This document shows positions 2,540 through 64,000 of a stretch of DNA of 64,000 nucleotides, in pieces; the first letter of the stretch is position 1, and each line of letters begins with the position of its first letter. The DNA is from Squalus acanthias. Its lineage: Eukaryota. The notes under the pieces were generated by a model. It was not told the DNA's origin. It was given only the letters and a program-made list of their open reading frames with translations, and made no database searches. The position numbers and the translations under genes were made by a program. The stretch is taken from positions 186,001 to 250,000 of the forward strand of contig JASTWF010000333.1 of the NCBI GenBank assembly GCA_030390025.1, in the 5' to 3' direction.

Positions 2540-3371
2540 TCTCCGTTACCTTTTATTTACTTAAAAGGAAAGTGTGTGAGTGAGTATGGAGCAATGTGTT
2601 TGGGTGATGTGCCTCCCATAGTTGAATAGCTGTCATGGTGTGAGATGTGGGTGTGAGTGTTGGTAGGTAGAAATTGTTGGTGGGTGAGTTATGGGGGTGT
2701 GGTGCTTTGGGCAGTGTGTGAACATTGTGGTACAGATGGTGGTATGTAGCATTTGTTAAAGCATTCACTCACCCTGACCACCTGAGTGAGGCTGTTAAAT
2801 TTCTTCCTGCACTGTGTGCGGGTCCTGGAGACCACAGTGCTGGTTGAGATATGCTGTGCTACCTCCCTTCACATGGTGCAGAAGACTTGCGGTGAGGGCC
2901 CCCTGCCACTTGCCAGGTAGAGCACCACCCTCCGTCTCTCCACAGCGAACACCAACGCCTCCAATGCTTGATCGCAGAATCTGCGGGCTCGCTCCCTGGG
3001 GCGTGGATCTGCCATGAGTGCAGCTGCTTCAGTCCTCCAACTCCTTCTCCTTCTCCTTGTCCTGCTTCTGCTTGCTGAGGCAGCTGCACAGCCAGCAATG
3101 CTGAGAATGAGGTTCTGCAGCATCAATGAACCTCCCCTTTAACACTGAAAAAAGCCTGTGGCAATCACGATTAGACCACACCCGATCTTGGTCCACCCTT
3201 TGGGTGTAACGCCAATGAGCTTGGGCTTTAAGACTTGAATTAGGACTCCAATCATTTTTTTGAGCAGTGAGCACGAATTTCGCGTGCAGTCTACAGCATT
3301 AGCGCCTGGCACTAATTCTTCAACTTTTCTACTGATACCACCCATTCCTGGGCTATAATGAATTTCTAGCC
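2540..3371 (-). mobile_element. PIF/Harbinger transposon remnant (terminus plus Myb gene 5' part)
   Basis: Ends in the TIR-like AATTTCTAGCC at ~3361-3371 and contains a Myb/SANT exon. Confidence 0.65.
2773..3015 (-). pseudogene. Harbinger Myb/SANT-like DNA-binding protein exon 1, one nonsense codon
   Basis: Translates MADPRPRERARRFCDQALEALVFAVERRRVVLY...CTM*REVAQHISTSTVVSRTRTQCRKKFNSLTQVVR, then a GTGAGT donor. Matches the Myb_DNA-bind_5 (NAIF1/MSANTD-like) pattern. Confidence 0.75.
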
Positions 3372-3375
3372 TGTA

Positions 3376-3390
3376 GGGTTTTAAGCAGTT

Positions 3391-3421
<31 letters not shown>

Positions 3422-3644
3422 ACTTGTGGTGGCCAAGCGTTCATAGCAACATTGTTTTTTGATCCTTCAGTGTCGGCTCTTCCTATCATTGTGAAGCAGA
3501 ATTCACCAAGCGTGGATTGTTCACCCACTAATAGGAACGTGAGCTGGGCTTAGACCGTTGTGAGACAGGTTAGTTTTACCCAACCGATGATGTGTTGTTG
3601 CAATAGTAATCCTGCTCAGTACGAGAGGAACCGTAGATTCAGAC
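3376..3644 (+). pseudogene. 28S rRNA pseudogene fragment (domain V 3' part to sarcin-ricin loop)
   Basis: Contains GTGTCAGAAAAGTTACCACAGGGATAAC, GTCGGCTCTTCCTATCATTGTGAAGCAGAATTCACCAAGCG and the SRL AGTACGAGAGGAAC. Shows CpG-type substitutions and 1-nt deletions, with no flanking rDNA. Confidence 0.95.
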
Positions 3645-3715
3645 TTCCTGTGCTTCCTGATCTTTGTAAATAAGTTTGGTTTGTAAGTCATTACTGCGTA
3701 CAGCTGTGGCCAGGG

Positions 3716-3789
3716 GCCCTGAATTTCCACAGGGGTCTTCTGCCATAAATTTGGCTGAGGATTGACAGGCCCTTCCAGAAATTCAGGGC
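3716..3789. mobile_element. Very short MITE
   Basis: Perfect 12-bp TIRs GCCCTGAATTTC / GAAATTCAGGGC enclosing ~50 bp. Confidence 0.5.
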
Positions 3790-4399
3790 AAGGGTGTCGG
3801 TGGAAGCAGGCAACTCATTTCCTGGCGCAGATTTCCAGGTGCAGTAATGGTGGGTTTGCATTTAGATCCCTAGCAATGTACTGGGAGTTGCGTCTGTATA
3901 GTATTGTGCACTGCCTTGCAGGAATTGACATCAATCTGTGATTGTGCTCTCTGAAATCAAAATATGAACCATCATCCACCTCATAAATGCTCATCGTTCA
4001 TCAAAAAATACAGAAAAAATTTATGTAACGACATGATGACTAGGACTACTATCACTAGGCATTCTCAGTGCCACTGTCTTAATACCCTTGGGGAATGGAA
4101 GCAATGAAGAATTGGCCATCTTGTTTCGAAATGAAATGTATTGTGCCAATGAGTCACTGATCTAGGATATGGATTTAAATCCATGACCTTTATAAGAACA
4201 GAATTTTTTTTTTAAATCAGCACTCCGTTAAAGCAGTAAAGACACATTTTAATTCATATATTATGGCTAAACTCCAATTGTAAAAAGAAATGCATCTCTT
4301 CACCATGAGGTAAAGCTCACTGCAGCCAAGACAGGCCCATGAGTTTAATTCGAGATAAAATTAAAAATGCAAATTCTGAAAATCTGAAATAGAAACAGT

Positions 4400-18918: not shown

Positions 18919-19083
18919 ATTATCTCTAATGCTCTATAAAGCTTGACTTTAATAGCAGAAGATACAAACCTGAATTGCAAACAAGATATTGCTATGACAA
19001 AAAAAAATTGGTTTAGAGAGTGCTGTAAAAATTGTAATAAATTATCAACATTTTAATAACCCAACATCTTCTGAAACTCTTTG

Positions 19084-19974
19084 GGGGAGAAATTCAGTGT
19101 CGCCCCATTTGGGGCGCAATTATCGGCCGGGCGCAAAGATTAGCGCCTGGTGCTAATTATCGCCACCGACTGCAAACTTGACTTTTATCGCCCCTGGAGG
19201 TGATTGCAGCGCTATATCAGGCGCTTCACACCTGTCTTAAGGCGCAAAGGCCGAGGAGCGAGGCGCTACCTCAGAGCGCTGGCGAAGCTCATGTGATGTC
19301 AGTCAGCAATGGAACACACACACAATGGCGCCGGCCAGTTCTTAAAGGGGAGGGTCGATATTGCTCTCCATCCACACCCTGCTCATTGCAGCCTTGAATC
19401 TCGGCCTGGAGAGACTTGCACATCAAATGTGCTGGAAAGAACAATGGAGAGTACCAGGCAAAGAGCTCAGAGTGCAGCCCCCACAGTCTCTGCTAAATCG
19501 ATACAAGGAATGGCAAATCAAAATGAACCTGCAAAGTGCTGCTCAGTACCCAAAACTCCTTCACACAACGTTGAATCTCTCCAGAAGTCTCTCCCTCTCT
19601 CTCTCAGAATGCGTAGTTCAAAAATGGCACCAACAATAAAAGGCAGGAAGCGGTCACCTTTAAATAGCGCTCCCCCTTTCCCTTCATGACTGCAGAACGC
19701 TCCCCTCAACCTGTCGTTGCTAGCGTCAGGCGGTAAGGCAGGGGGCGCCACTCAATATCCGCTCCGGGGCGATACCGGGGCGTTGCGCACTCGAGTGACG
19801 TCATGATCTGCCGGCGCAGGAGATCGTGGAGGTAGTGTTTAGCGCCGCCGCAAAATGTCTAGTTAATTTCGCGAGCGGCGCAAACTTCGCCGCGCCTGGG
19901 CGCTGGATGCTTTGCGCCCCATTAGCGCCCTTTAAGGCGCTAACGGGAGGCGCAACCAACTGAATTTTTCCCCC
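19084..19974 (+). mobile_element. MITE family B (~890 bp)
   Basis: TIRs GGGGAGAAATTCAG / CTGAATTTTTCCCCC and TSD TTG/TTG. Highly similar copies at 22334, 35350 and 63732. Confidence 0.9.
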
Positions 19975-20653
19975 TTGATGCCTTACAACATGCTCCAAAC
20001 CAGCTGCTATTGACTAAGCTTTCCTCTTTGGGATTGGACAAATCTGCCATCTAAACCTGTAGTCTTACTACAGAAACTCTGGTCAAGTTATACTTCTGAC
20101 GCACTGAGCATAGTGATAATTGAGTTCTGAACATGTGTGCTTGGACACTAATTTGTAAGAAGACAAGAGAAATGCTGCTCGTACCCACTCCTTTATAAAA
20201 TTATGGCCTAGAATTTCGAGTGGGCCGAAATCTGCCGGTGTCACCACGGGTCGAAGTTAACGGCCGCCCGCAAGAATAGCACAGGCAGCACCAGTATTTT
20301 GATGCTGCCTGCTGATTAACATTAGCGCAGCGCAAAACCCGTAGTGTTTTTTCCAGCGGTAGACCCAGCAGGAGGCCCAATGTAGCCCTAGGATCCCTGG
20401 AGCGAGGCAGCATTCTCTTAAATCTAGCCTGTCATTTTCGAAAGCAGTCTCGATCCCTTAAAGGGGAAATGCCTTCAAAAATGAAAAAATAAAAATCATT
20501 TATGAATAGGCAGTCTTTAGCTTTTAGAGCTCAACTACCTTCTGAAAAAAAATAAACATTAAAATAATTCCGAAATGGCAGTCTCCAGCTCTTAAAGCTG
20601 AACTGCCTTCTGCATATAAAAAAAATGTTATAAGTGCTTCAGCACAAACAAAA

Positions 20654-22333: not shown

Positions 22334-23171
22334 GGGGAAAAATTCGGTTGCTTTGTGTCTCCCGTTAGCTCCCTAAGAAGGCGCTAATGGGACGCAAAGC
22401 AACTAGTGCCCGGGTGCTAAACACTACCACCACAATCTCCTGCGCCCGCAGATCGTGACGTCAGTCAAGCGTGCAACGCCCCGCTAGCGCCCCGGACCAG
22501 ATATTGAGTGGCGCCCCTGCCTTACCGCCTACCGCTAGCAACGATGGGTTGAGGGGAGCGTTTTGCAGTCGGGAAGGGACTGGGGGAGCGCTATTTAAAG
22601 GCAACCGCTTCCTGCCTTTTTTTGTCGGCGACATTTTTGCACCACACATTCTGAGCGAGAGAGAGAGACTTCTGGAGAGATTCGACGCTGTGTGAAGGAG
22701 TTTTGATTACTGAGCAGCACTTTGCAGGTTCATTTTGATTTGACCTTCCTTGCATTGATTTAGAAGAGACTTGGGGGCTGCACTCTGAGCTCTTTCCCTG
22801 GGCCTCTCCATTGTTCTATCCAGCAGATTTGATGTACAGGTCTCTCCAGGCAGAGATTCAAGGCTGCAATGAGTAGGGTGTGGATGGAGAGCAAGATCGA
22901 CCCTCCCCTTTAAGAGCTGGCCGGTGCCAGTGTGTCTGTGTTCCATTGCTGACTGACATCACATGAGCTTTGCCAGCGCCCTGGGGTAGCGCCTCGCTCC
23001 TCGGCATTAGCGCCTTAAGAGAGGTGTGTAGCACCTGATTTAGTGCTCCAATCACATCCAGGGGCGATAAAAGCCAAGTTTGCAGTCAGAGGCGATAATT
23101 AGCGCCAGGCGCTAAACTTTGCACCCGGCCGATAACTGTGCCCCAAACGGGGCGATACCGAATTTCTCCGC
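22334..23171 (-). mobile_element. MITE family B, inverted, more diverged
   Basis: Reverse complement of 19084-19974 with an internal deletion. Confidence 0.85.
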
Positions 23172-30802: not shown

Positions 30803-31369
30803 AATATCACACAATTATTTCTGAGCTCCAGAGTTTAGTATAAGCTCAATAATTCAAAGTCATGTGAGTATTCCAAAACACATGAGACAATCAATTCAGG
30901 ATTATAGTTGTAAATAACAGAAACATAAACAGCAGTGCATACTGTTTGTTCTGTTAGAATCGGTGTAGTCAGACCGCAGCCTATTTTGTCTGCTGGGAAT
31001 GTGGACAAGTGAAACTATGCACTTGAAATGTTGGCATTGTTTAATGTGTATTTTGTGAAGTGTTCACATTGATTGAATGGCTGCAATGTTTTGTAATATC
31101 TAAGACAAACAGCAGAACTAGGGTTAACTTAAAGAGGGGAAATCCGTGAAGAACTGTACCATTATTCAAGTGCTGGGGTGACAGTAAAGGAGCTACATAT
31201 CGCCTCGATGTCCTTTGGTTATGGAGGAGAAAATCAGCCGAGGTTTCTGTTTCAGATAGTTATCCACTGACCAATGCTGGAAGTGCACGTGCAAACATTG
31301 GGTGCAGATGCCATTTTGGAATCTTAAGGTGTCTCCTAGCGCCCAAAAAATGGGTGCTACCGAGCCCAA

Positions 31370-32970
31370 TTTTTTTTTATTCGTTTATGGGATGTGGGAG
31401 TCGGTGGCAAGGCCAGCATTTATTGCCCATCCCTAATTGCCCTTGAGAAGGTGGTGGTGAGCTGCCTTCTTGAACTGCTGCAGTCCATTTGGTGAAGGTA
31501 CTCCCACAGTGCTGTTAGGTAGGGAGTTCCAGGATTTTGACCCAGCGACGATGAAGGATCGGCGATATACTTCTAAGTCAGGATGGTGTGTGACTTGGAG
31601 GGGAACTTGGAGGTGGTGGTGTTCCCATGCGCCTGCTGCCCTTGTCCTTCTAGGTGGAAGAGGTCACGGGTTTGGGAGGTGCTGCCGAAGAAACCTTGGC
31701 GAGTTGCTGCAGTGCATCTTGTAGATGCTAGACACTGCAGTCACGGTACACCGGTGGTGGAGGGAGTGAATGTTTAAGGTGGTGGATGGGGTGCCAATCA
31801 AGCAGGCTGCTTTGTCCTGGATGGTGTCAAGTTTCTTGAGTGTTGTTGGAGCTGCACTCACCCAGGCAAGTGGAGAGTATTCCATCACACTCCTTACTTG
31901 TGCCTTGTAGATGGTGGAAAGGCTTTGGGGAGTCAGGAGGTAAGACACTCGCCACAGAATACCTAGTCTCTGACCTGCTCTTGTTGCCACAGTATTTATG
32001 TGGCTGGTCCAGTTAAGTTTCTAGTCAATGGTGACCCCCAGGATGTTGATGGTGGGAGATTCGATGATGGTAATGCCGTTGAATGTCATGGGGCGATGGT
32101 TAGACTCTCGCTTGTTGGAGATAGTCATTGCCTGGCACTTCTGTGGCGCAAATGTTACCTGCCACTTATCAGCCCAAGCCTGAACGTCGTCCAGGTCTTG
32201 TTGCATGCGGGCATGGACTGCTTCATTATCTGAGGAGCTGTGAATGGCGCTGAACGCTGTGCAGTCATCAGCGAACATCCTCATTTCTGACCTTATGATG
32301 GAGGGAAGTTCATTGATGAAGCAGCTGAAGATGGTTGGGCCTAGGACACTGCCCTGAGGAACTACTGCAGTGATGTCCTGGGGCTGTGATGATTGACCTT
32401 TAACCACCGCAACCATCTTCCTTTGTGCTAGGTATGACTCCAGCGAGTGGAATGTTTTGCCCCCGATTCCCATTGACTTCAGTTTTACTAGGGTTCCTTG
32501 ATGCCACACTCGGTCAAATGCTGCCTTGATGTCAAGGGCAGTCACTCTCACCTCATCTCTGGAATTCAGCTCCTTTGTCCATGTTTGGACCAAGGCTTTA
32601 ATGAGGTCGGGAGCTGAGTGGTCTTGGCGGAACCCAAACTGGGCATCAGTGAGCAGGTTATTGGTGAGTAAGTGCCTGCTTGATAGCACTGTCGATGACA
32701 CCTTCCATCACTTTGCTGATGATTGAGAGTAGACTGATGGGGCGGTAATTGGCTGGATTGGATTTGTCCTGCTTTTTGTGGACAGGACATACCTGGGCAG
32801 TTTTCCACATTGTCGGATAGATGCCAGTGTTGTAGCTGTACTGGAACAGCTTGGCTAGAGGCGCAGCTAGTTCTGGAGCACAAGTCTTCAGCACATTAGC
32901 CGGGATGTTGTCGGTGCCCATAACCTTTGCTGTATCCAGTGCGCTCAGCCGTTTCTTGATATCACGTGGA
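31370..32970 (-). mobile_element. Poly(A)-tailed APE-RT LINE (CR1/L2-group), 5'-truncated
   Basis: RT motifs NYRPISLLS, QFGFR, LDIKAAFDRVWH, VPQGSVLGP, MFADD. The tail is AAGGGCAATTAGGGATGGGCAATAAATGC...GAAT(A)n. Confidence 0.92.
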
Positions 32971-34892: not shown

Positions 34893-35349
34893 TTGGAGCC
34901 CATTCTCTCCCCTGTTGCACCGTTCCTCACTCTTTCCCAGGTCTGAATCTCTTCAACCATGACTCCCAGCACTTGCTCCAACCCATAATGCACCTCCCTT
35001 TTAAGAGGTGCAGGCTAGCTTTAAGCAGTGCAGGCTAGCTTTAACAGGTGTTAGCCTCCCACAATATTGATCCCCCTGCTGATGCGTCTGGCCAATGAAC
35101 AGCATAGTTAGTGCTGGCTGGACTTAGAGATCCTATAAATGAGCAGGCAGCGCGAAGTTGGCGTGTTGCCTGCATTGCAATCAATGGGTGAGTCTTAATC
35201 GTGCATCGCGATCCCCGTGTCCGTTTTCGGTGGCTGATCAATTTAGCCCCCATTACGTCCACAAAGGCAGCCTAAAAAAAAAGCAGCTCTGTTCATCAAT
35301 GTATCTGTTGCTAGCCAGGCTCAATTAAGTATTAGTGATAAAATTCAAA

Positions 35350-36241
35350 GGGGGAAAAATTCAGTTGGTTGCGCCTCCCGTTAGCGCCTTAAGAGGGCGC
35401 TAATGGGGCGCAAAGCATCCAGCGCCCAGGCGCGGCGAAGTTTGCGCCGCTTGCAAAATTAACTAGACATTTTGCGGCGGCGCTAAACACTACCGCCACG
35501 ATCTCCTGCACCGGCAGATCATGACATCAGTCGAGTGCGCAACGCCCCGGTATGGCCCCGGAGTGGATATTTAGTGGCGCCCCCTGCCTTACCGCCTGAC
35601 GTTAGCAACGACAGGTTGAGGGGAGCGTTCTGCAGTCATGAAGGGAAAGGGGGAGCGCTATTTAAAGGTGACCGCTTCCTGCCTTTTATTGTTAGTGCCA
35701 TTTTTGAACTACGCATTCTGAGAGAGAGAGAGAGAGACTTCTGGAGAGTTTCAACGTTGTGTGAAGGAGTTTTGGGTACTGAGCAGCACTTTGCAGGTTC
35801 ATTTTGATTTGCCATTCCTTGTATCGATTTAGCAGAGACTGTGGGGGCTGCACTCCGAGCTCTTTGCCTGGTACTCTACATTGTTCTTTCCAGCAGATTT
35901 GATGTGCAGGTCTCTCCAGGCCAGGATTCAAGGCTGCAATGAGCAGGATGTGGATGGAAAGCAAGATCAACCATCCCCTTTAAGAACTCGCCCGTGCCAT
36001 TGTGTGTGTGTTCCATTGCTGACTGACATTACATGAGCTTCGCCAGTGCTCTGAGGTAGCGCCTCGCTCCTCGGCCTTTGCGCCTTAAGACAGGTGTGAA
36101 GCGCCTGATTTAGCGCTCCAATCACCTCCAGGGGCGATAAAAGTCAATTTTGCAGTCGGTGGTGATAATTAGCGCCAGGCGCTAATCTTTGCGCCCGGCC
36201 GATAATTGCGCCCCAAATGGGGCGATACTGAATTTCTCCCC
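35350..36241 (-). mobile_element. MITE family B, inverted
   Basis: Near-identical reverse complement of 19084-19974, with TSD AAA/AAA. Confidence 0.9.
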
Positions 36242-36704
36242 AAAGTGACCCAAATCCGAACCTTTGGGATTAATTGGCAAAAATGCAAGTTTTAGATAAA
36301 TTAGATAATTTGAAATTTGGGTCTGCCTCTATAAATCCAATGCTAGTGATATGGTACAGGAAGCTGAGAAATAAACAGATTCAAAAAATAAATAAATTAC
36401 AAATAAATAAGTACACCAAGTTGGGGAATTGTTTATTTGTGTACATGGACTATTAATGTCAACATTCCACCATTAGTTCGCCCTGGTTATAATGGATACA
36501 AGCTAGAGCCATAGCAACAGAGTCAAATGTAGATGTTTTAATGGGTTACTTATCCTGCATTCTGCTATGGGCACAGGCATTCAATCCATCTGACTGTAGT
36601 TGGTGAGTAAACATCAATTTCCCCAGTAGGCAACTGGTAGAGTGTACATCTATTTTTCCATGTGATGCTGGCAGGCTGATTGGTTTGGAAAGTGGAAGGT
36701 CTAG

Positions 36705-38662: not shown

Positions 38663-39638
38663 TACAAATATACCTACCCAGTTAAAAGGGTGGTGTGGAT
38701 TAAGACCAGCTTCTAACCAGCATAAAAGGGTCAATTAAATGGGCTGCAATTATGGCTGATAGCTGCTGTGCTTCATTGTGAACCGTTGCCTGATCTACTT
38801 GCAATGGCTTCTCAAAAGAGATAGAAAAATTGGCATATGCAGATTTAGACAACTGCTGTTGCAATCTCTGCTTCAAGTTACCACCAGCTAGAAAATGACA
38901 TCCGTAAATCACACCAGTGCTTAGTTTAGTGGTATGATTAAACAAATCACCAGTTATTTGCCTGCAGAGCTGATTAACCAACAGTGATAACTATTCCATC
39001 CCAAGTGACAACTATTTAGCCAACCATGACTAGTATTCACATCCAAGGATAAAATTAGAAAGAAAATGTCTCTCTTGATATAATGTGAGATGCACATGAT
39101 TATACCAGACAATCCCTTGATTCACCGCTGAGCTTGAATCACTGCTTCCTCCCATCACACTTTGTCCTTAATTCTTCTTCAGCCGGGAAAGGGCAGCTGC
39201 CTGAACTGTGCTGTTCTCCACATATTCACCAATACCTTTCTATGATTAACTAACATAGGTGCCCTGCTCCTCCCCCAAGAATGGGTATTTTGCTTGCATA
39301 TGGTCTCCATCTAAGAGTTTAGCCAAGAACTAGCCAAAGTGACACAGATTTCAATTTCGGTCAAGGCCGGGATTCAATTGCTAGCATTGGATTTGAAATT
39401 AGGACAGGAACTGGACCATTAACTGTCCTTTAATATAATCAATCACATCGTCTTAAATCATACAGCTGAATCTGCAACTGCTTTAGGCTCTGAACTGAAG
39501 CTGGCCAGAACAACAATAATGAGAACACAATACGATAAGTATGGCTGGTTAAAAATAAATGTAGTTGATGATTGTAATTTAGATCCACAGAGCTTGTTGA
39601 CAGGAACTCCTTTCACATTTCCTACAATTAAAAAAAAA

Positions 39639-40257
39639 TTTTTTTTATTCGTTTATGGGATGTGGGCGTCACTGGCAAGGCCAGCATTTATTGCCCATCC
39701 ATAATTGCCCTTGAGAAGCTGGCGGTGAGCCGGCTTCTTGAACCGCTGCAGTCCGTGTGGTGAAGGTACTCCCACAGTGCTGTTAGGTAGGGAGTTCCAG
39801 GATTTTGGCCCAGCGACAATGAAGGATCAGCAATATACTTCTAAGTCAGGATGGTGTGTGACTTGGAGGGGAACTTAGAGGTGGTGGTGTTCCCATGCGC
39901 CTGCTGCCCTTGTCCTTCTAGGTGGAAGACATCGCGGGTGGGAGGTGCTGCTGAAGAAGCCTTGGCGAGTTGCTGCAGTGCATCTTGTAGATGGTACACA
40001 CTGCAGCCACGGTACGCCGGTGGTGGAGGGAGTGAATGTTTAAGGTGGTGGATGGGGTGCCAATCAAGCGGGCTGCTTTGTCCTGGATGGTGTCGAGCTT
40101 CTTGACTGTTGTTGGAGCTGCACTCATCCAGACAAGTGGAGAGTATTCCATCACACTCCTTACTTGTGCCTTGTAGATGGTGGAAAGGCTTTTGGGAGTC
40201 AGGAGGTGAGACACTCGCCGCAGAATACCCAGCCTCTGACCTGCTCTTGTTGCCACA
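39639..40257 (-). mobile_element. Poly(A)-tailed APE-RT LINE 3' fragment
   Basis: Nearly identical to 31370-31990. Confidence 0.9.
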
Positions 40258-40595
40258 GGGGAGGGGATTCATCAACTATATTGATGCTAATGATATGCCA
40301 TCACTTTTTTGGAATTGAGCATTGTTATAATAATTATGTGCTTCTAAGGGACAATTTTGTCAAGCGACTAAATGAGGGTACGGTTGACAATTAAGAAGTG
40401 TGTTGCAAGTGGTGTAGGAGAGGTGAAGTGTTAGACGTGGGGATGTGAGGATGTTCAGGTGAGGAAGGGGTTTTGGAGTTGTGCAAGGCAGCTGTTGTGT
40501 GTTAGTGGAGCTGTGTAGTCATAGTTCAGAATAGGATGTTGGAGGCGCTCTTAACCAGAGAACATTGCGAAGGGGTGGTTGTGGAAGTGTTGCTT

Positions 40596-42640: not shown

Positions 42641-45457
42641 GTGAAGTCCAATATCTGTGCTCTGGCAGCTCAGTGCCAGTATCTGAGAAGGATTCAACAT
42701 AATGCAGCACTACCTAATGGGTTGTGGTATCATGAACATCTGCACCTGTCCCTCCTGTCAGAGATGCTTTGACCACTGGCCTTTGGTCCTTGCTTGGGGA
42801 GTTATTTGGAGAGAACCAGCTTTAAAGATCTTCAGGGCACCATCTCTGAGGGTCCAGAGGATCTATCTGATACCATAAGATCTGCTCTCCCACTGATCAG
42901 TGGACACTTAGATCTATGACCCAGCACAAGTGGTGTGGCTAGAATCCACCTTCATGATCCCGCCCTTCTGCTGATTGCAGCTCATATGACCTCAGTTGGC
43001 TTCCTCAGATATCTGATCATATAGGTGTCAGGATACAGGATCAGGCTGCCCATGCAATTGCAGTGGCAACACAGCCCACTAAGAGTCTTCCTGAGAATCT
43101 GAAGCCCTAAGATGAGGGCCACCCGTCCCAAGAGGCTCATGATACCAAAGTGCAGCCAAGCACCACCAGCATCCCTGGCCCTCAGGTATCACCTTAACTT
43201 AGCACCAGGATAGGTTTAAGAACAGCACAGAGAAGCACTAGGGGTCGGCACGGTACTAATAGGAAGCACTTGCTGTAAGGTAAACCACTTTGTGTCCTGA
43301 AGTTAGTCTGTTCTTTGTTTTTTGTGCTTGAAAGATTTTTGACGGTTGCAACAAGAGACAATTTTATCTAAATCTTCTTATTGAACCATTGTATCCTTAA
43401 GCTGATTTCTGCTAAGACATCATCAGTGGAGCAATATAATCTTGTAGATTCTGTTAGAAGAGTATCTCCTAGTTGATCTTCTCATATATTGTAGCCTTTT
43501 ATTTGCCTCTGTCATTTTCTCTTCCTCCTGTTCCTGTTCTGCCTACAGTATAAGGACATGTATGGGAATGACCATAGTGAATGCCATGGTAAGAGTTCCA
43601 TGACTACTACTTCTATAGTTACTGGAACTACCTTGTGAGCTGATGTTCTTTCCCTCCAGCGATATGTTTACATCCTTGTTTACATGGGTTGAGCTTGACA
43701 TAGGTTTCAGTATTTGACCTTTGCTCCATAAATAGGATTCAGCGGCTTCCAGGAAGGCAAATGGGCCAGAGGACCATTTTTAGGATGAGACATCCACCTT
43801 GAAATTGGATTGGGACCTCTCCCCCAGCATAAGTACGGTGGTTGCGAGGCCCCGTACTGCTGTCGGTGTGGCTGCATCCCACATTTGGGAGACTGGTTTA
43901 TTTACATGACCAGGGGGGAAGCCCCGATCATCTGGTGGATGTGAACTGCTCCAACAGGGGGAGCCCAGGTCCAGGAAAGGTCAAAAAAATGTATTAGGCA
44001 AATTGAAGTTTTATTTCTAAAGGAGCAATTTGGAGGCATTTCAAAAGTAATCACTAACCTCAAGAATCATTTATCTTTATCACTAGAGATTCTATGGCCT
44101 TTAATAGGCATCAGCGGATCACACATCAACTCTCAGGCAGAATGGGCGATTGTCCCAGGGTAGCCTGGCATGGCCTCTTGACATGGGGAGAGGGCGGGTG
44201 GAAGATCCTCCTCAGCAGAATTTAAAAGGACATTACAAATGAGGCACAAACCCGATGCAATCCCAATTCCTGTGCCCTCAGGTGGAAATCACTTTTTTGC
44301 GCTCTCAAGCCCCAGAAATTTTAGGGCCACCCTACTTTTTTAAGGCATTTTTTTCCCCTTCTTTTTTTGGACAATTGCCAGTCAGGAAAGCTCATGGGTG
44401 AGTTGGTTATGCCCTATTCCCAGTGCGGCTCTAAAACACAAAGAGGGACAAAAAAAAAAGAGAACAAACAAGTTCTTTCTCCCTTCCCCTATGTGGAGTA
44501 TAAAAACATTTACAATTCTTACACAACTTGTAGTTTATTGGGGAATTGGCACTTATTGTCACAAATTCCATTTAAAATCTTAAGCTTTTAACTTTTCAAG
44601 TTATTCCTGTACATATGTACAACTATTTGTGCCAAAACAGTTAAGAAATATATATGGGCTGATTCTCCAATCAGACGTTTTCAGCAAGAAGCAGCATTCG
44701 CAGGGAACACTACTCTGGAAATCACAGGCCCACAGTCCCTCATTTTCCATCCATCTAAATCAATAAACAGGAAATTAGTGACTCCAGGCCCAGGCTTCCC
44801 TGAAAGTGTGAGCACTGCTTCTCTCCAGAATGCCGGGTTGGGGAATAAGATCTACAGATTAATGAAGCCTTATTTTTATAGACATGCCACAAGAGACAAA
44901 CAGTGCTTGCACAACTGTGGGAGATTAAAGTGCTTTATTAAAAAATTGGAAGCCCTTTTATAGTATGAAGGTCACTTTATCATTTTATTTTTAAATGCGT
45001 GGATTTCTGAAAATCCCAGTGACTGCGTTTTCTGTCACATCTTATCTGCTTTCCAAATCGTGGAAAATGTGAAGAGATAACACGGTCTGATCTGACTTAG
45101 GATCAGCTGTTCAATATGAAGTCATCAAACCTTCAAATTTTCCCTAGTCACCACATGTTATACCACCAGAGTGAATTTACATTGACAAACTGATCATCTT
45201 CACTGACCCACAAACAGGTTGGGAAGAAAAACAACTTCACAATCAACTGCTGTTCTCTGGCATTGCAGCATTGCTATTACAGATATCATTTGAAATTTGA
45301 GCTGCCAGGAATGGGTCAGGGCAGCAGTACAACAGCTGAGATACCAAACTGTCATATTTAGAACAGAGATTGAGTTTTTCATTAAAATCGAGGGGCACTA
45401 AATTCTGTGACTTTTATTTTGGGGGAGGGCGGTGGGGGGAGGGGTGTTAAAAGTAAT

Positions 45458-46214
45458 GGCCTAGAAATTCCGTTCCCTACGGGTGGGTACGCGCTGTGAA
45501 CTCACCCGTAGGGCCAACGGAAGTGCCGGTTTTACGCATGTACTGCGCATGCGCTGGAAACCAGCACTTCCGTTCTCTGCAGAAAGGGCTTCCCAGGTCA
45601 AACGCCTGCGCCGGATAGGCAGCGCGTACGTTAGAAACTTCCGGTTTTTTCACACTGGCTTGAGTCCAGGTAAGTCGGGAACAGCTGCGCCTAGAAAAGC
45701 AGGCGCAAGGCCTGCTTTTAGCAGGCTAATAGTTTAAGAAAGTAAAAAAAAAATTTTTCCACTGATTTATCATTTTAAAATACTTTAAAGAAAGGTAAGT
45801 TTAATTTTAGCCCCGTTAAAAACTTTAATTATTTTTTTCAAAAATTTAAATTTTTGTTTAAAATAGTTAATTTATGTAATTTATGGTCATTTTAAAAATG
45901 TGATTTTTAAAAAAAATTATTTGAAGTTTTACTTATGTTTTGGGGCTGATCTCTATTCATAGATTTGACAGGTCTTCCTCTCAAATCTATGAATGGAGAT
46001 TCCCTGCTCTGATTGGCTCCCCTTGGCCCACGTGATCCCAGGGACGCTGTGAACTAGCTGCGCCCCTGGGATACGCGAGCCCTGCACACCGGCAGTTTGA
46101 AGAGGCACAGCAACGGAATTCTGCGCCTCCCGGGAGCCCTCCAGTCCAAGGTGCAGATTTTTCCAAATCGCAGCCCTCCGCGCGCGGGAGGGCTGCGAAC
46201 GGAATTTCTGGGCC
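45458..46214. mobile_element. MITE family A, orientation 1
   Basis: TIRs GGCCTAGAAATTCCGTTC / GAACGGAATTTCTGGGCC and TSD AAT/AAT. Confidence 0.9.
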
Positions 46215-46236
46215 AATATAGTTCCAGTGCAGTCAA

Positions 46237-46545
46237 GGGAACGGTAGCATAGTGGTAATGTCACTGGGCTAGTAATCCTAGAGGCTTGGACTAATGATCC
46301 AAAGACGTGAGTTCAAATCCCACCATGGCAGCTGGGGAATTTAAATTCAGTTAGTTAAATAAATCTGGAATAAAAAACTAGTATCAGTAATGGTGATCAT
46401 GAAACTATCGGATTGTTGTTAAAAACCCATCTGGTTCACTAATGCCCTTTAGGGAAGGAAATCTGCCGTCCTTATATGTGACTCCAGACCCACAGCAATG
46501 TACAGCCCTCTGAAATGGCCTAGCAAGCCACTCAGTTGTACCAAA
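46237..46545 (+). mobile_element. tRNA-derived SINE head plus conserved central domain (MetaSINE-like), continuous with the downstream LINE
   Basis: A box TAGCATAGTGG (46245-46255), B box GTTCAAATCC (46311-46320), then AAAACCCATCTGGTTCACTAATG.CCTTTAGGGAAGGAAATCTGCC. No SINE tail or poly(A) before the LINE. Confidence 0.75.
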
Positions 46546-48320
46546 CTGCTACAATAATAAGAATGAAACCGGACGGACCACCCGACATCGACCTCGGCAC
46601 CGGCTGCGGACATGGCAACAGCCCAGTCGACCCTGCAAGGTCCTCCTCACCAACATCTGGGGACTTGTGCCAAAATTGGGAGAGCTGTCCCACAGACTAG
46701 TCAAGCAACAGCCTGACAGAATCATAGCTTTCAGCCAATGTCCCAAACTCCTCCATCACCACCGGCAGGACGCACCAACCAGGGGTGGCGGTACAGTGAT
46801 ATACAGTCAGGAAGGAGTAGCCCTGGGAGTCCTCAACATTGACTCCAGACCCCATGAAGTCTCATGGCTTCTGGGTAAGGAAACCTCCTGCTGATTATCA
46901 CCTAGTGCCCTCCCTCAGCTGATGAATCAGTACTCCTCCATGTTGAACACCACTTGGAAGAAGCACTGAGAGTAGTAAGGGCACAGAATGTACTCTTCAA
47001 CGTCCATCACCAAGAGTGGCTCGGTAGCACCACTACTGGCCGAGTCCTGAAGGACATAGCTGCCAGTTTGGGCCTGCGACAGGTGGTGAGAGAACCAACA
47101 CGAGGGGAAAAACCTACTTGACCTCGTCCTCACCAATCTACCTGTTGCAGATGCATGACAGTATTGGTAGCAGTCATTGTGGAGATAAAGTCCCGCCTTC
47201 ACATTGAGGATACCCTCCATTGTGTTGTGTGGCACTACCACCGTGCGAAATGGGGTAGATTCAGAACAGATCTAGCAGCTCAAAACTGGGCATCAAAGAG
47301 GTGCTGTTGGCCATCAGCAGCAGAAGAATTGTATTCCACCACAATCTGTAAACCTCATGGCCCGGCATATCCCTCACTCTACCATTACCATTACCATTAA
47401 GCCAGGGGACCAACCCTGGTTCAATAAGGAGTGTAGAAGAGCATGCCAGGGGCAGCACCAGGCTTACCTAAAAAAAATGAGGTGCCAACCTGGGAAAGCT
47501 GGACCACATAGCATACTAAAAAGCGGAAGCAGCATGCTATAGACAGAGCTAAGCGATCCCACAATCAATGGATCAGATCAAAGCTCTGCAGTCCCGCCAC
47601 ATCCAGTCGTGAATGGTGGTGGACCATTAAACAACTAACAGGAGGAGGAGGCTCCAAGAATATCCCCATCCTCAATGATGGTGGAGCCCAGCACGTGAGC
47701 GCAAAAGACAAGGCTGAAGCGTTTGCAGCCAGAAGTGCCGAGTGGATGATCCATATCAGCCTACTCCTGAGGTCCCCACCATCACAGAAGCCAGTCTTCA
47801 GCCAATTCGATTAACTCTACGTGATATCAAGAAACAGCTGAGCGCACTGGATACAGCAAAGGCTATGGGCCCTGACAACATCCCGGCTCTTGTGCTCTAG
47901 AACTAGCCGCACCTCTAGCCAAGCTGTTCCAGTATAGCTACAACACTGGCATCTATCCAACAATGTGGAAAACTGCCCAGGTATGTCCTGTCCACAAAAA
48001 GCAGGACAAATCCAATCCAGCCTATCAGTCTACTCTCACTCATCAGCAAAGTGATGGAAGGTGTCATCCACAGTGCTATGAAGCGGCACCTGCTCACTGA
48101 TGCCCAGTTTGGGTTCCGCCAGGACCACTCGGCTCCCAACCTCATTACAGCCTTGGTAAAAACATGGACAAAGGAGCTGAATTCCAGAGGTGAGGTGAGA
48201 GTGACTGCCTTGACGTCAAGGCAGCATTTGACCGAGTGTGGCATCAAGGAGCCCTAGTAAAACTGAAGTCAATGGGAATCGGGGGGAAAACTCTCCACTG
48301 GCTGGAATCATACCTAGCAC
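46546..48320 (+). mobile_element. APE-RT LINE 5' two-thirds (same family as 31370-32970), frameshifted
   Basis: APE N-terminus CKVLLTNIWGLVPKLGEL...QPD, RGGG, LDLVLTN, followed by PWFN, GPDNIP and QFGFR. 47820-48320 matches the reverse complement of 32420-32970. Confidence 0.9.
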
Positions 48321-51070
48321 GTAGATGGTGGACAGGCTTTGAGCGATCAGGAGATGAACCACTCGTCACAGAGCATCCAGCCTCTGCCTTGCACTAGTAG
48401 CCATGGTGTTGATATGTCTGGGTCAGTTTATACTCTGGTCAATGGTGATCCCCCGCCTCCAATGTGCTGTTGGTTGGGGACATGGCGATGGTGATGCCAT
48501 TAAAGGTCAAGAGGAGATGGCTAGGCTTCCTCTCGTTCAAAATGGTCACTACCTGGAACTTAGGTGGCGTGAATATTACCTGCCATTTGTCAGCCCAAGT
48601 CTGAATATAATTCAGGTCCTGTTGTTGGCTGGTGTGGGCTGCTTCATTATCAGAGAACATAAGAAATAGGAGCAGGAGTAGGCCATACATCCTCTCGAGC
48701 CTGCTCCGCCATTTAATAAGATCATGGCTGATCTTTTACCTCAACTCTACTTTCCTACCCTATCCCCATATCCCTTGTTTCCCTTAGAAAGGTTGTGAAT
48801 GGAGCTAGGCACTGTGCAATCATCAGCAAACAACCCCACGCCTGTCCTTCTATCAGAGGGGTCATTAATGAAGCAGCTGACGATGGTTGGTTCGAGGATA
48901 CTTCCTTGAGGAACTCCTATACTGAACTCCTTCAGTGATGTCCTGAGGCTAGGATGACTGACTTTCAACAACCACCTTCATCTTCCTTTGCATCAGGTAT
49001 AAGTCCAGCTACTGAATGGTTTTCCCTTTGACTCCCATTGACTTCAGTTTTGCTTGAGCACTTTGGTTCCATACTCAACAACAACAACAACAACTTGTAT
49101 TTATATAGTGCCTTTAACGTAGTAAAACGTCCCAAGGCACTGCACAAGAGTATTTTAAGACAAAAAATTTGACCCCGATCCACATAAGGATAAATTAGGG
49201 CAGGTGACGAAAAGCTTGGTCAAAGAGGTAGGTTTTAAGGAGCGTCTTAAAGGAGGAAAGAGAGGTAGCGAGGCGGACAGGTTTAGGGAGGGAATTCCAG
49301 AGCTTAGGACCTAGGCAACAGAAGGCACGGCCACCAAAGGTTGAGCGATTATAATCAGGGATGCTCAGGGGGGCAGAATTAGAGGAGCACAGATATCTCG
49401 GGAGTTTGTGCGGCTGAAGGAGATTACAGAGATAGGGAGGGGCGAGGCCATTAAGGGATTTGAAAACAAGGATGAGAATTTTGAAATCGAGGCGCTGCTT
49501 AACCAGGAGCCAATGTAGGTCAGCGAGCTCAGGGGTGATGGGCGAACGGGACTTGATGCGAGTTCGGACACGGGCAGCCGAGTTTTGGATGACCTCAAGT
49601 TTACGTAGGGTGGAATGTAGGAGGCCAGCCAGGAGTGCGTTGGAATAGTCAAGTTTAGAGTTAACAAAAGCATGGACTCAGTCGAATGCTACCTTGATGT
49701 TGAGGGCACCCTTCCTCTGGCATTCGGCTCTTGTGTCCCTGTCTTTATGAAGGCTCTGATGAGGTCTCGAGATAACCGGTTCTGGCAGAAACCAAACTAA
49801 GAATTGATGACCGGATTATTGGTGAGTAGGCTTTGCCTGATGGCACGATTGATGACTCCTTCCATCACTTTACTGATGATTAGGAGGAGGCTGATAGGGC
49901 AGTAATTAGGCACCATCAGCACGTCCCCAGCCATCAACACCTTGGGGGGGTCACCATTGACCAGAAAATTAACTGAACCAGCCATATCAACACCATGGCT
50001 ACTAGAGCAAGGCAGAGGCTGGATGCTCTGTGGCAAGTGGTTCATCTCCTAATCCCTCAAAGCCTGTCCACTATCTGCAAGGGTCAAGTCAGGAGTGTGA
50101 TCGAATGCTCATCATACACCTGGATGGATGCACCTGCAACAACACTCAAGTAGCTCAACACCATCCAGTGTTAGGTTTGTGGATAGGACATACCTGGGCA
50201 ATTTTCCACATTGTCAAGTAGATGCCAGTGTCATAGCTGTACTGGAACAGCTAGGCTAGAGAAGCGACTAGGTCTGGTGCATAGATCTTTAGCACTACAG
50301 CCAGGATGTTGTCAGGGCCCATAGCCTTTGCGGTGTCCAATGCACTCAGCCGCTTCATAACGTCATGTGGAGTGAACTGAATTGATTGATCATTGGTATC
50401 TATGATGGTGGGGACCTCAGGAGAAGGCCAAGTAGGATCATCCACTTGACACTTTGACTGAAAACATTTGCAAAAACTTCAGCCTTGTTTCTTGCAGCCA
50501 GCTGCTGGGTTCCACCATAGCTGAGGTTGGGGATGTTCAAGGAGCAGAATCTCCTGTCAGTTGCCTAGTTGTCCACCAACGCTCTCAACTGAATGTTGTA
50601 GGTCTACAGAGCTTTGCTCTGATCCATTGGTTGTGGGACAGCACAGCTGAATCTGCTGTTTTAGGTGTTTAACTTTACTAGGTTCGTACCTCATTCTAAG
50701 GTACGCCTGGTGCTACTCCTCGCAAGCCCGGCTACACTACACATTGAACCAGGGTTGGTCTCCTGGCTTGATAGTTTTCAAGGAGTGAGGGATGTGCCAT
50801 AAGGTTGCAGATTGTGATAGTACATAATTCTGCTCCTAATGATGATCCACAGTGCTTCGTAGATTCCCAGTTTTGAGCTGCTAGATCTGTCCTTAGTCTG
50901 TCCCATTTAGGACGGTGGTAGTGCCACACTACCAGATGGAGGATGCCTTCATGGTGGAAATGTGACTTTGTTTTCACAAGGACTGTGCTGTGTTTTCACA
51001 ATTTCTGTTAAGGCTATCATGGACAAACATGTTTGCGACAGGTATCTTGGTGAGGCTGACGTCAAGAAGG
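48321..51070 (-). mobile_element. Older diverged copy of a related APE-RT LINE, with nested CR1/L2 and an inverted segment
   Basis: VPQGSILEP, LFADDC and AMGPDNI on the minus strand. A CR1 tail lies at 48656-48790, an L2 at 49077-49675 and a plus-strand piece at 49911-50168. Confidence 0.8.
49077..49675 (-). mobile_element. Young L2 3' fragment
   Basis: (AAC)n tail. Near-identical to 6505-7105. Confidence 0.9.
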
Positions 51071-52131: not shown

Positions 52132-53560
52132 AGTTGTTTTTCGGACTGGAGGAAGGTTTTTTTTAATTTGTTCATGGGATGTGGGCATCACTGGCAAGGC
52201 CAGCATTTATTGCCCATCCCTAATTGCCCTTGAGAAGGTGGTGATGAGCCGCCTTCTTGAACCGCTGCAGTCCGTGTGGTGAAGGTACTCCCACAGTGCT
52301 GTTAGGGAGGGAGTTCCAGGATTTTGACCCAGCGACGATGAAGGATCGGCGATATACTTCCAAGTCAGGATGGTGTGTGACTTGGAGGGGAACTTGGAGG
52401 TGGTGGTGTTCCCATGCGCCTGCTGCCCTTGTCCTTCTAGGTGGTGAGGTCGTTGGTTTGGGAGGTGCTGCCAAAGGAGCCTTGGCGAGTTGCTGCAGTG
52501 CATCTTGTAGGTGGTACACACTGCAGCCACGGTACATCGGTATACAGTGGTGTTCCCCAGGGGTCGGTTCTAGGACCACTGCTTTTCTTGATATATATTA
52601 ATGACTTGGATGTGGGTGTACAGGGCACAATTTCAAAATTTGCAGATGACACAAAATTTGAAAGTATAGTGAACAGTGAGGAGGATAGTGATAGACTTCA
52701 AGTGGACATAGACAGGTTGGTGGAATGGGCAGACACGTGGCAGATGAAATTTAATGCAGAAAAGTGCTAGGTGATACATTTTGGTAGAAAGAATGAAGAG
52801 AGGAAATCTAGACTAAAGGGTACAATCCTAAAGTGGGTGCATGAACAGAGAGACCTAGGAGTATATGTGCACAAATCATTGAAGGTGGCAGGGCAGGTTG
52901 AGACAGCAGTTAAAAAAGCTTACGGGATCCTGGGCTTCATGAATAGAAGTATAGAGTATAACAACGTGGAAATTATGATGAACCTTTATAAAACACTGGT
53001 TTGGCCTCAACTGAAGTATTGTGTCCAATTCTGGGCACCGCACTTTAGGAAGGATGTGAAGGCCTTAGAGAGGGTGCAGAAAAGATTTATGAGAATGATT
53101 CCAGGGATGAGGGACTTCTGTTACATGGATAGACTGGAGATGCTGGGGTTGTTCTCCTTAGAGCAAAGAAGATTGAGAGGAGATTTGATAGAGGTGTTCA
53201 AAATCATGAGGGGTCTGGGCAGAGTAGATAGAGAGAAACTGTTCCCATTGGCAGAAGGGTCGAGAACCAAAGGACACAGATTTAAGGTGATTGGCAGAAG
53301 AACCAAAGGCGACATGAGGAATAACTTTTTTACTCAGTGAGTGGTTAGGATCTGGAATGCAATGCCTGAAAGGGTGGTGGAAGCAGACTCAATCACGGCT
53401 TTCAAAAAGGAATTGGATAAGCATCTGAAGGAAAAAATTTGCAGGGCTACAGGGAAAGGGCGGGGAATGGGACTAGCTGAAGTGCTCTTGCAGAGAGCTG
53501 GCACAGGCTCGATGGGCCGAATGGCCTCCTTCCATGCTGTAACCATTCTATAATTCTATG
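52132..53560 (+). mobile_element. CR1 LINE (RT to 3' end), interrupted near its 5' end
   Basis: SGVPQGSVLGPLLFLIYINDL, KFADDTK and YCVQFWAPH motifs, with a CATTCTATAATTCTATG tail. Confidence 0.92.
52157..52540 (-). mobile_element. Poly(A)-tailed APE-RT LINE 3' end inserted in CR1
   Basis: Matches 31370-31755. The CR1 sequence GGACTGGAGGAAGG|TATACAGTGG is split around it. Confidence 0.88.
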
Positions 53561-58300: not shown

Positions 58301-59394
58301 ATACTCCCAAAACCTGGAGTTCCCATCCCTGTCCCTGGATGGGGAACTGACATATCAGTGGCAGCCAGTATGCCGAGTGAGATGAGGTATTCGGCGCCAC
58401 CAAGAGTGCATGGGGCAAGCAACCAGGACCCCCAGAAAGAGACTTTTTAAAATGATTTCCTGGATTAGCCCTTGATCACAGCAGTGCGGGGTTGGGGGTG
58501 TGGGGGGATCCTGGTAAATCTCTGCCCATGGGCAGGTGGCCAGCTAAGTTTGTGGTGGCATGGGGCAGGGAGGCACCAGAGAAGTGCCCCAAGTGGCTTC
58601 TACTGGCTTCGTGCAAATAAAATTCCCTCCCACTGACCCCATAAACCCCAGCAGGGGTCTACGTTGGAGGGCACCGACGGGCCGATCCTTGGTGCTAACA
58701 TTGGGATCACCATTTGTGAAATTTCGCAGCCTATTACATTTAGTATTGAGTCTTTTAAATGTTATGACAAAGCAGATACTGCCACCTATGCTCTCCTAAC
58801 ATGATATAGTCACAGGGGCAAGGGACTTTTCTCTCTCTACTGCTGGGCAGAGTGCAAAGCACGAGCCACAGTATAAATCTGATCATGCCAGCTGCACTTC
58901 ACATTTGACAGCTACCCATCTCAGTATAACAGCAGCCTTAATATCAAAAGAAACGATTAAAACCACAAAAATGTTGCAGTTGCCTCCAACACTTCCCCAT
59001 TGAATAACGGTCAGGTTTGTTGTCATGTATTCTGAAGTCTTCAGTAACATAAAGATATATTGCTGTGAGGGCATTTATTTCTGATTGCTTCATATTGCAT
59101 GAGATGATCTTGAACTACCTGTGCTCTGACATTTATTGCACTTCCTTTATTGCCAAACATCAGCTATGATTCTCATGCCATTTACTAGCCAACAGGATTG
59201 CATTTTTGAGAAATACTTATGAAGGGCTAAGTTCCATAGTGTAGGACACTTTCAGGTAGGAAAGATTACGAGACAACAGAAGGTGAAGTAAGAAGCAGTG
59301 ATTAGTGATGGCAACCTGGAGTTTTTAAAGCTTAAATATCGTGAGAGGAAGCAAAGACTGAATTAAATTTGCAGCATTAACCCTAGCTGTAGCT

Positions 59395-63490: not shown

Positions 63491-63731
63491 ACTGAGTGGG
63501 GTGCCCCAGAGTTTGGTGTTGGGCCCGTTACTTTTTCTATTTCTATTTCTATTTCACATTAACGACAGGACTCATAGCGGTGTAAATTGGTCAAATGTGC
63601 AACTTATACAAAACTAAGGAGAGAGACTGGAATTAGAGGAGACAGCTCAGACATTACAGCATGAGGCAATTGGGAGGGGGGTGAGTGGTGGCCGGCAGTT
63701 TTAATGATGGGTGCTGCGCAATCGAGTTTCT

Positions 63732-64000
63732 GGGGGAGAAATTCAGTATCACCCCCATTTGGGGCGCAATTATCGGCCGGGCGCAAAGATTAGCCCCTGG
63801 CGCTAATTATCGCCTCCGACTGCAAACTTGGCTTTTATCACCCCTGGAGGTGATTGGAGCGCTAAATCAGGCACTTCACAACTGTCTTAAGGTGCAAAGG
63901 CCGAGGAGTGAGGCGCTACCTCAGAGCGCTGGCGAAGCTCATGTGATATCAGTCAGCAATGGAACACACACACAATGGCGCCGGCCAGTTCTTAAAGTGG
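63732..64000 (+). mobile_element. MITE family B, left part
   Basis: GGGGAGAAATTCAG...CCCCATTTGGGGCGCAATTATCGGCCGGGCGCAAAG matching 19084 onward. Runs off the window. Confidence 0.9.

Follow-up and report, generated by a model that had tools for sequence, protein, structure and literature searches.

A tRNA-derived head and RNA polymerase III (Pol III) transcription define SINEs, and coding capacity and transcription by Pol II define LINEs. The closest described relatives of the locus analysed here are the elasmobranch Zenon LINEs (Stuart et al. 2026, PMC13343379), which belong to the same family, lack an ORF1 and end in an A tail; the supplement lists 10 Zenon consensuses, the elasmobranch sequences among them. 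Neither 'tRNA' nor 'polymerase III' occurs in the main text (nor 'trna' in the preprint), and the head, terminator avoidance and a missing AUG go unmentioned in the passages compared. Other Zenons, known from Lepidoptera, share with the shark element a single endonuclease-reverse transcriptase (RT) frame, an A tail and a length of ~3.3 kb. Zenon can give rise to short internal-deletion derivatives; one of them, the lepidopteran Persaeus, carries the Zenon 5' end without tRNA homology or a Pol III promoter (PMC6740152). RTE-1_DAn and elements related to it are autonomous LINEs holding tRNA-like sequence that matches many SINE2 elements; they differ in belonging to the RTE clade, and in the passages compared the position and promoter role of that sequence are unstated and the matches were discarded as noise (PMC5786205). 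Bov-tA, CoeSINE4, SINE2-1_EC and other SINEs, like shark Zenon, carry a tRNA head on LINE 5' and 3' parts (PMC5786205), but these elements are non-coding and add the head to a deleted LINE, whereas shark Zenon bears it in front of a complete coding element. R2 resembles shark Zenon in being a single-ORF LINE whose RNA is no capped Pol II product and for which translation by internal entry has been proposed (PMC6765202), and differs in its Pol I co-transcription, ribozyme release and other type of endonuclease; no ribozyme family in Rfam matched the element. MetaSINEs (PMC4824008; 15 members listed, none from a shark) have a tRNA head followed by a central body, as shark Zenon does, but their Meta-domain is 66 bp long and lies directly after the head, and the bivalve sequences are unlike the Zenon body. 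Neither a tRNA-headed Zenon nor a Pol III-driven autonomous LINE was found in open-literature titles and abstract openings, and a tRNA-headed Zenon is undescribed in the portions compared of PMC5499810, PMC11481361, PMC7245038 and bioRxiv 10.1101/443036. The family is published, and its head architecture has apparently gone unremarked in the literature.

The locus was studied within a 64-kb window (the whole stretch of Squalus acanthias DNA analysed, 64,000 nucleotides), where the focal copy opens on the forward strand with a tRNA-derived head (46237 to 46332; ARAGORN, Rfam) that forms the 5' end of the element according to a step in contig depth and the start of the published consensus. Its A box (46245 to 46255; Pol III type 2 promoter consensus) and B box (46311 to 46320, 55 nt 3' of the A box) can be read directly in the sequence, as the earlier note had claimed. 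Using consensuses for the two boxes, both strands of the window were scanned for an A box followed 25 to 75 nt later by a B box, and the pair at 46245 and 46311 was the only one on either strand; the same scan found no such pair upstream of the endonuclease in any of 21 control LINE loci. ARAGORN called a single tRNA-like gene in the window (46259 to 46332), and the Rfam tRNA match (46254 to 46331) reached 22.7 bits (E 0.031) where the gathering score is 29; the tRNA-derived head typical of SINE2 elements is thus present by ARAGORN and by an Rfam match below gathering. The A box begins 8 nt into the element, the 5' boundary is sharp in contig depth at 46237 to 46240, and the spacing of the boxes and their position near the 5' end are usable for a Pol III type 2 unit. 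Comparison of the window with itself yielded no further copies of the head, in agreement with the claim that only one copy here retains the 5' end.

The long spacing between the boxes arises because two near-identical hairpin arms lie in tandem within the head (46264 to 46304), the second of which ARAGORN takes as the anticodon arm (Ile, AAT). The pair may have arisen by duplication of an anticodon arm, or may include the long variable arm found in tRNAs of the Ser/Leu type; in the consensuses of other species, judged by eye, the second arm has different letters and could still pair. Folding of the head was no better than that of shuffled sequences (z = -0.09; body, z = -1.39; tail, z = 0.09). 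The 18 nt preceding 46237 have no nearby recurrence that could represent a target site duplication (TSD). They separate the head from a MITE-like repeat (45454 to 46218; 22-nt terminal inverted repeats, AT-rich centre), a separate element with five further copies in the window at 67 to 83% identity.

The head is followed by a SINE-like body (46333 to 46540, forward strand) that is common to all seven elasmobranch consensuses and carries two private deletions in the focal copy, marked by loose contig ends at 46474 and 46505. Its 3' limit is approximate and was set by contig depth, which drops 4- to 8-fold at 46540 in three of four runs, at the entrance to what is also the most variable part of the element. 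This part is an arginine-rich linker of ~90 nt (46541 to 46633, forward strand), open in the endonuclease frame and devoid of an in-frame ATG. It leads into an apurinic-type endonuclease domain (46634 to 47230, forward strand; frameshifted, 3' limit approximate), recognised by Pfam and by the motif CKVLLTNIWGL at 46634, which lies within a stop-free frame from 46514 to 46894. The inter-domain region and the first part of the RT (47231 to 48320, forward strand; Pfam RVT_1, tblastn) are likewise frameshifted and are broken at 48320. Because the copy is frameshifted, its Pfam scores fall below the cut-offs (RVT_1, E 0.011 and 1.3e-5; Exo_endo_phos_2, E 0.019); the RT region is matched by full-length relatives in tblastn and is 87% identical to a second window copy at 32425 to 32970, and the homologue P0001 gives a Pfam Exo_endo_phos match at E 0.0088. 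From the start of the head to the endonuclease is 397 nt, which leaves no room for an ORF1, so that the reported direct fusion of head and body to the endonuclease through a ~90-nt linker is borne out by both the reading frames and the spacing. SINE2 elements are short and non-coding with a LINE-derived tail directly after the body; here the body enters a coding frame.

Other points in the earlier note fared less well. The focal copy does lack a tail and TSD, as described, but this has no diagnostic value, since its 3' end was lost at 48320, where it stops against an inverted older relative. The resemblance of the body to a MetaSINE domain failed motif tests against bivalve MetaSINEs: no 12-letter bivalve Meta motif occurs within three mismatches between 46237 and 46640 (a test distinct from comparison with the cross-phylum consensus), and four of five body motifs are absent from the PMC4824008 supplement, the fifth appearing there only in V-SINE tails. 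Four body motifs had no match in full-text literature.

Judged by likeness to published consensuses, the focal element is a degraded copy of an abundant shark and ray Zenon LINE of the CR1 group, a membership indicated by a 5' end nearly identical to a published consensus. The supplementary consensuses were compared over their first 400 letters (PMC13343379). The first letter of SquAca_Zenon-1 corresponds to position 46237 of the window, and over 400 letters the window copy differs by ~14 substitutions, two one-base insertions and three short deletions (counted by eye), most of the substitutions being seen in contigs as well. All seven elasmobranch Zenon consensuses (SquAca_Zenon-1, -2 and -3, CarCar_Zenon-1, ScyCan_Zenon-1, RhiTyp_Zenon-1 and HypSab_Zenon-1, representing four sharks and one ray) start with the head and continue into the same body and linker. 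The A box is present in all seven (by eye) and the exact B-box 10-mer in six, the B box of the ray consensus being broken by one missing C; by eye, the letters between the boxes vary between species while the boxes stay. Within the first 400 letters of the entries in the CR1-group table (at least 909 rows), the six B-box 10-mers match only those six entries. Zenon consensuses from hagfish (two) and coelacanth (one) show no tRNA head at their start and contain TTTT in their first 400 letters (both by eye). The longest genomic insertions reported (3322, 3299, 3299 and 3220) are close to the consensus lengths (3314, 3288, 3293 and 3283), and nearly all copies are dead, with intact ORF2 in 0/2313, 1/1419, 3/612 (ray), 1/294, 0/59 and 0/396. 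The Zenon features found here are endonuclease and RT in one frame (frameshifted in the focal copy), no ORF1 and, in the three other window copies, a poly-A tail. In a 139-sequence tree that included no named Zenon protein, the RT fell into a group (support 0.93) together with 44 full-length proteins, most of them without a name.

To evaluate the junction across the family, contigs of 4 of 24 listed public runs were aligned to positions 46150 to 47049 at 80% likeness; three were DNA runs (guessed or unlabelled; organisms A, B and D) and one a guessed RNA run. Summed contig depth is not copy number and cannot rank parts of the element, and it was used here to locate edges: in all four runs it stepped up between the bins 46210 to 46239 (32,145, 33,868, 8,164 and 225) and 46240 to 46269 (911,246, 718,136, 123,063 and 7,080), and two contigs of one run, whose first 349 and 291 letters are unaligned, start to match at 46237. 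Linker bins remained at 59,000 to 596,000 in the three DNA runs, with individual contigs listed at depths of only 4 to 91, and the lowest listed linker point, at 46613 (15,380, 41,301 and 8,339), was a shallower dip than those at the focal copy's own deletions (46504 and 46994). Away from contig ends, a variant letter was carried at 46541 by at least 100, 122, 124 and 39 contigs in the four runs and at 46613 by at least 67, 87, 67 and 22. Among the joints listed (992 more lay beyond the listing), each of the three DNA runs has contigs that skip a variant linker and connect the body with the endonuclease, and the 24 loose ends listed (3,326 more lay beyond the listing) all look like variants of the element itself. 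By eye, residues encoded by body or linker precede the endonuclease in three of six short database proteins. The head-to-endonuclease junction is a family trait and no chance neighbour. Both outcomes that the earlier note had named as fatal to its proposal, a junction unique to this locus or full-length copies with a different 5' UTR and an ORF1, thus failed to appear: contigs of three organisms cover the junction deeply, all seven elasmobranch consensuses begin at the same head, and the family has no ORF1. Two gene models join parts of this LINE to host domains: P0001 links an RGM C-terminal domain to the endonuclease, and in P0018 a piece of the RT precedes a protein with a FERM domain, annotated from Heterodontus francisci. 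These fusions are probably annotation artefacts and possibly exonisation.

Three further copies of the family in the window, all 5'-truncated and on the reverse strand, supply the 3' end that the focal copy lacks. The longest (31376 to 32970; Pfam RVT_1, E 1.5e-30) provides the remaining RT and the C-terminal region, followed by a 3' UTR of ~60 nt and an A tail; the others retain the 3' end with its A tail at 39642 to 40258 (94% identical to the 31368 to 31992 copy) and 52163 to 52541 (93% identical to the 31370 to 31755 copy). In tail alignment an A run ends all three, an AATAAA precedes it by ~40 nt in each, and no clear TSD could be seen by eye. The copy near 39630 to 39645 has a run of nine Ts directly after the A tail, which the other two do not.

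Beyond the break at 48320, an older relative of the LINE lies on the reverse strand (48321 to 50985) and meets the focal copy tail to tail, neither of the two retaining its 3' end; the older relative contains a nested L2-like tail (49077 to 49676) and a short repeat (48656 to 48785). A 5' inversion by twin priming at 48320/48321 was considered and rejected: the inverted part is only 66 to 77% identical in the overlap, against 87% for the 32970 copy, and is therefore an older, separate insertion. A 7-letter stretch near the break recurs just beyond the break point in the intact copy and may reflect a microhomology deletion. Elsewhere in the window, a fragment of the 3' part of 28S rRNA (3355 to 3950, forward strand; Rfam LSU, 213 bits), matching well over about its first 300 nt and then fading, is a pseudogene or rRNA-derived repeat, and a young repeat family is represented at 19081 to 19976, 35348 to 36244, 22413 to 23169 and 63731 to 64000 by copies up to 96% identical.

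Minimal Pol III terminators are TTTT and TVTTT (PMC8466645), and the sense strand of the element was searched for them over 3,124 non-redundant nt from two window copies. TTTT is absent (4.4 expected, P = 0.017), a result that for TTTT alone is not significant under nulls that take dinucleotides or codons into account (per copy, P = 0.36 and 0.30; in a further test, P = 0.12 and 0.21). TTTT and TVTTT together are also absent from the sense strand and occur 21 times on the antisense strand, the TVTTT pattern being a second test chosen after the contexts of T3 runs were seen. The combined count expected was 7.7 by mononucleotide shuffles (0 of 2000 reaching a count of zero), 4.5 by dinucleotide shuffles (P = 0.004) and 3.3 by codon shuffles of the 32970 copy (P = 0.021). 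The same run pattern is depleted for C (16 versus 25.8, P = 0.002) and G (10 versus 15.8, P = 0.029), to ~62% of expectation; the shortage of terminators is therefore partly not specific to T, and applying the discount seen for C and G to T arithmetically gives P near 0.06. Sense-strand T poverty is common in LINEs (PMC7140322).

The controls were 80 LINE loci, the best-ranked among 454 distant ones from a metagenome profile scan; none falls in the clade of the Zenon RT, so they serve as outgroup controls only. TTTT occurs in 79 of the 80 coding stretches, including all 33 of at least 2 kb, and the seven controls with comparably low T (≤0.23) have 42 terminators between them over 13,057 nt. 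Control L044 (59 to 1826) has no TTTT in 1,768 nt at a T content of 0.206, but has two TVTTT, and its 5' end lies outside the contig. L2-like and CR1-like fragments in the window itself carry terminators. At a relaxed threshold ARAGORN made three calls in the 80 control loci, none of them a sense-strand head upstream of the endonuclease.

The endonuclease frame of the window copy is opened by no ATG. A two-codon frame, Met-Ala-stop (46515 to 46523, forward strand), and a second ATG at 46563 share a frame that is +1 to the endonuclease; the latter was rejected as a start codon, being out of frame and turned into ATA by a G-to-A change at 46565 in a large share of contigs (174,460 of 464,870; 152,507 of 300,125; 194,166 of 223,295). 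The Met-Ala-stop mini-frame is present in the lead consensuses of all five species, in frame with the endonuclease in three and off by one in two (by eye; for two of the three in-frame species the frame was tied via shared linker codons, the first 400 letters ending before the endonuclease). In 40 of 43 related database proteins the motif could be located, and 37 of these 40 open with a called Met no more than 26 residues from it, although a called Met may stand for another start codon. In the shark family, translation likely begins by reinitiation, at a near-cognate start or by internal entry; translation of uncapped, non-Pol II LINE RNA has been proposed before, for R2 (PMC6765202).

Taken on sequence evidence, it is somewhat probable that Pol III makes the RNA of the headed Zenon. 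More tentatively, and with confidence that falls just short of an even balance, we propose an autonomous coding retrotransposon whose full 3.3 kb would be transcribed by Pol III, starting from a SINE promoter that it had captured. It would have shed its Pol III terminators and be translated without a cap or an in-frame AUG, an arrangement retained since before the shark-ray split. Before that split, a Zenon ancestor would have acquired the front end of a tRNA-SINE, the probable route being a template switch. With TFIIIC bound to the boxes, transcription by Pol III would begin at the first base and run along the terminator-free sense strand into the flank. The resulting RNA would carry no m7G cap and offer no in-frame AUG; its low-level translation would rely on reinitiation past the two-codon frame, on a near-cognate start or on internal entry as proposed for R2. 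The protein would then bind the 3' tail, and target-primed reverse transcription would insert a copy, the promoter being regenerated in every full-length copy.

The strongest competing explanation, which we regard as a serious though less than even prospect, is that the head is family-wide but that the transposing RNA comes from Pol II, whether driven by a promoter within the head or the body or produced by host read-through. The A and B boxes would then be left over from the capture of a SINE, or would serve some other purpose, for example TFIIIC binding, RNA structure or exchange with SINE copies. Pol II is the usual polymerase of LINEs (PMC5786205), the AATAAA ahead of the A tail suits Pol II (it is also found in polyadenylated Pol III SINEs; PMC8466645), and the ray family has intact ORF2 in 3 of 612 copies while its consensus has a broken B box. 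The T-run signal can be explained in part by composition, and translation would be easier with capped RNA. Set against this, all seven consensuses begin exactly at the head with boxes kept while the spacer changes, and the strand imbalance in terminators is complete (0 sense, 21 antisense). Moreover, since no AUG opens the frame, a cap alone would leave translation unsolved.

It is also conceivable, but unlikely, that Pol III yields mainly short or non-coding RNA, through SINE-like copies or early termination, with the protein made from rare Pol II read-through RNAs and mobilising the Pol III RNAs in trans. The missing in-frame AUG would fit such an arrangement, as would the guessed RNA run, in which head and body bins reach 33,000 to 66,000 against at most 11,000 for the endonuclease, a ratio of about six-fold where peaks in the DNA runs differ by ~1- to 1.5-fold; however, the RNA nature of that run is a guess, contig depth cannot rank parts of the element, and terminators are missing along the whole body, where short transcripts would have no need of their absence. 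Largely refuted, and very improbable, is a union of head and ORF by chance at this locus, or by extension of a consensus jumping from LINE to SINE through the shared body: the published consensuses were extended automatically (PMC13343379) and no contig among those listed covers head to endonuclease in one piece, but the window sequence is uninterrupted and agrees with the consensus from the consensus's first letter onwards, the same structure recurs in five species, and the joints in all three DNA runs, the three short proteins and the 24 loose ends described above all speak for a real junction.

A partner SINE would be expected to combine head, body and 3' tail and, as a deletion derivative, to be younger than the LINE; no such short element occurs in the 64-kb window. 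Exact patterns from the head and body also had no match in viral contigs, metagenome contigs or prokaryote genomes, nor had an RT fragment in viral contigs, but shark DNA would not be expected in these collections and the negatives have no bearing on the question. Short copies would fit both the depth drop at 46540 and the six-fold excess of head and body; the loose end listed at 46540 resembles a linker variant. Because the Zenons of butterflies, hagfish and coelacanth are without the head, it was probably gained in the elasmobranch lineage, and a LINE that took over the front end of a SINE is at least as likely as the reverse direction, in which a SINE would derive from the LINE.

A LINE that keeps a SINE head across sharks and rays blurs the line between SINEs and LINEs, even if the promoter is a relic, and the headed Zenon would represent module exchange from SINE to LINE. 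For shark genomes, this means that repeat annotation may score the 5' ends of LINEs as SINEs or tRNA pseudogenes. If transcription by Pol III holds true, the family would offer a long protein-coding transcript made naturally by Pol III, together with a test system for the translation of uncapped RNA without an in-frame AUG, and would allow a test of whether a promoter switch frees a transposon from Pol II silencing.
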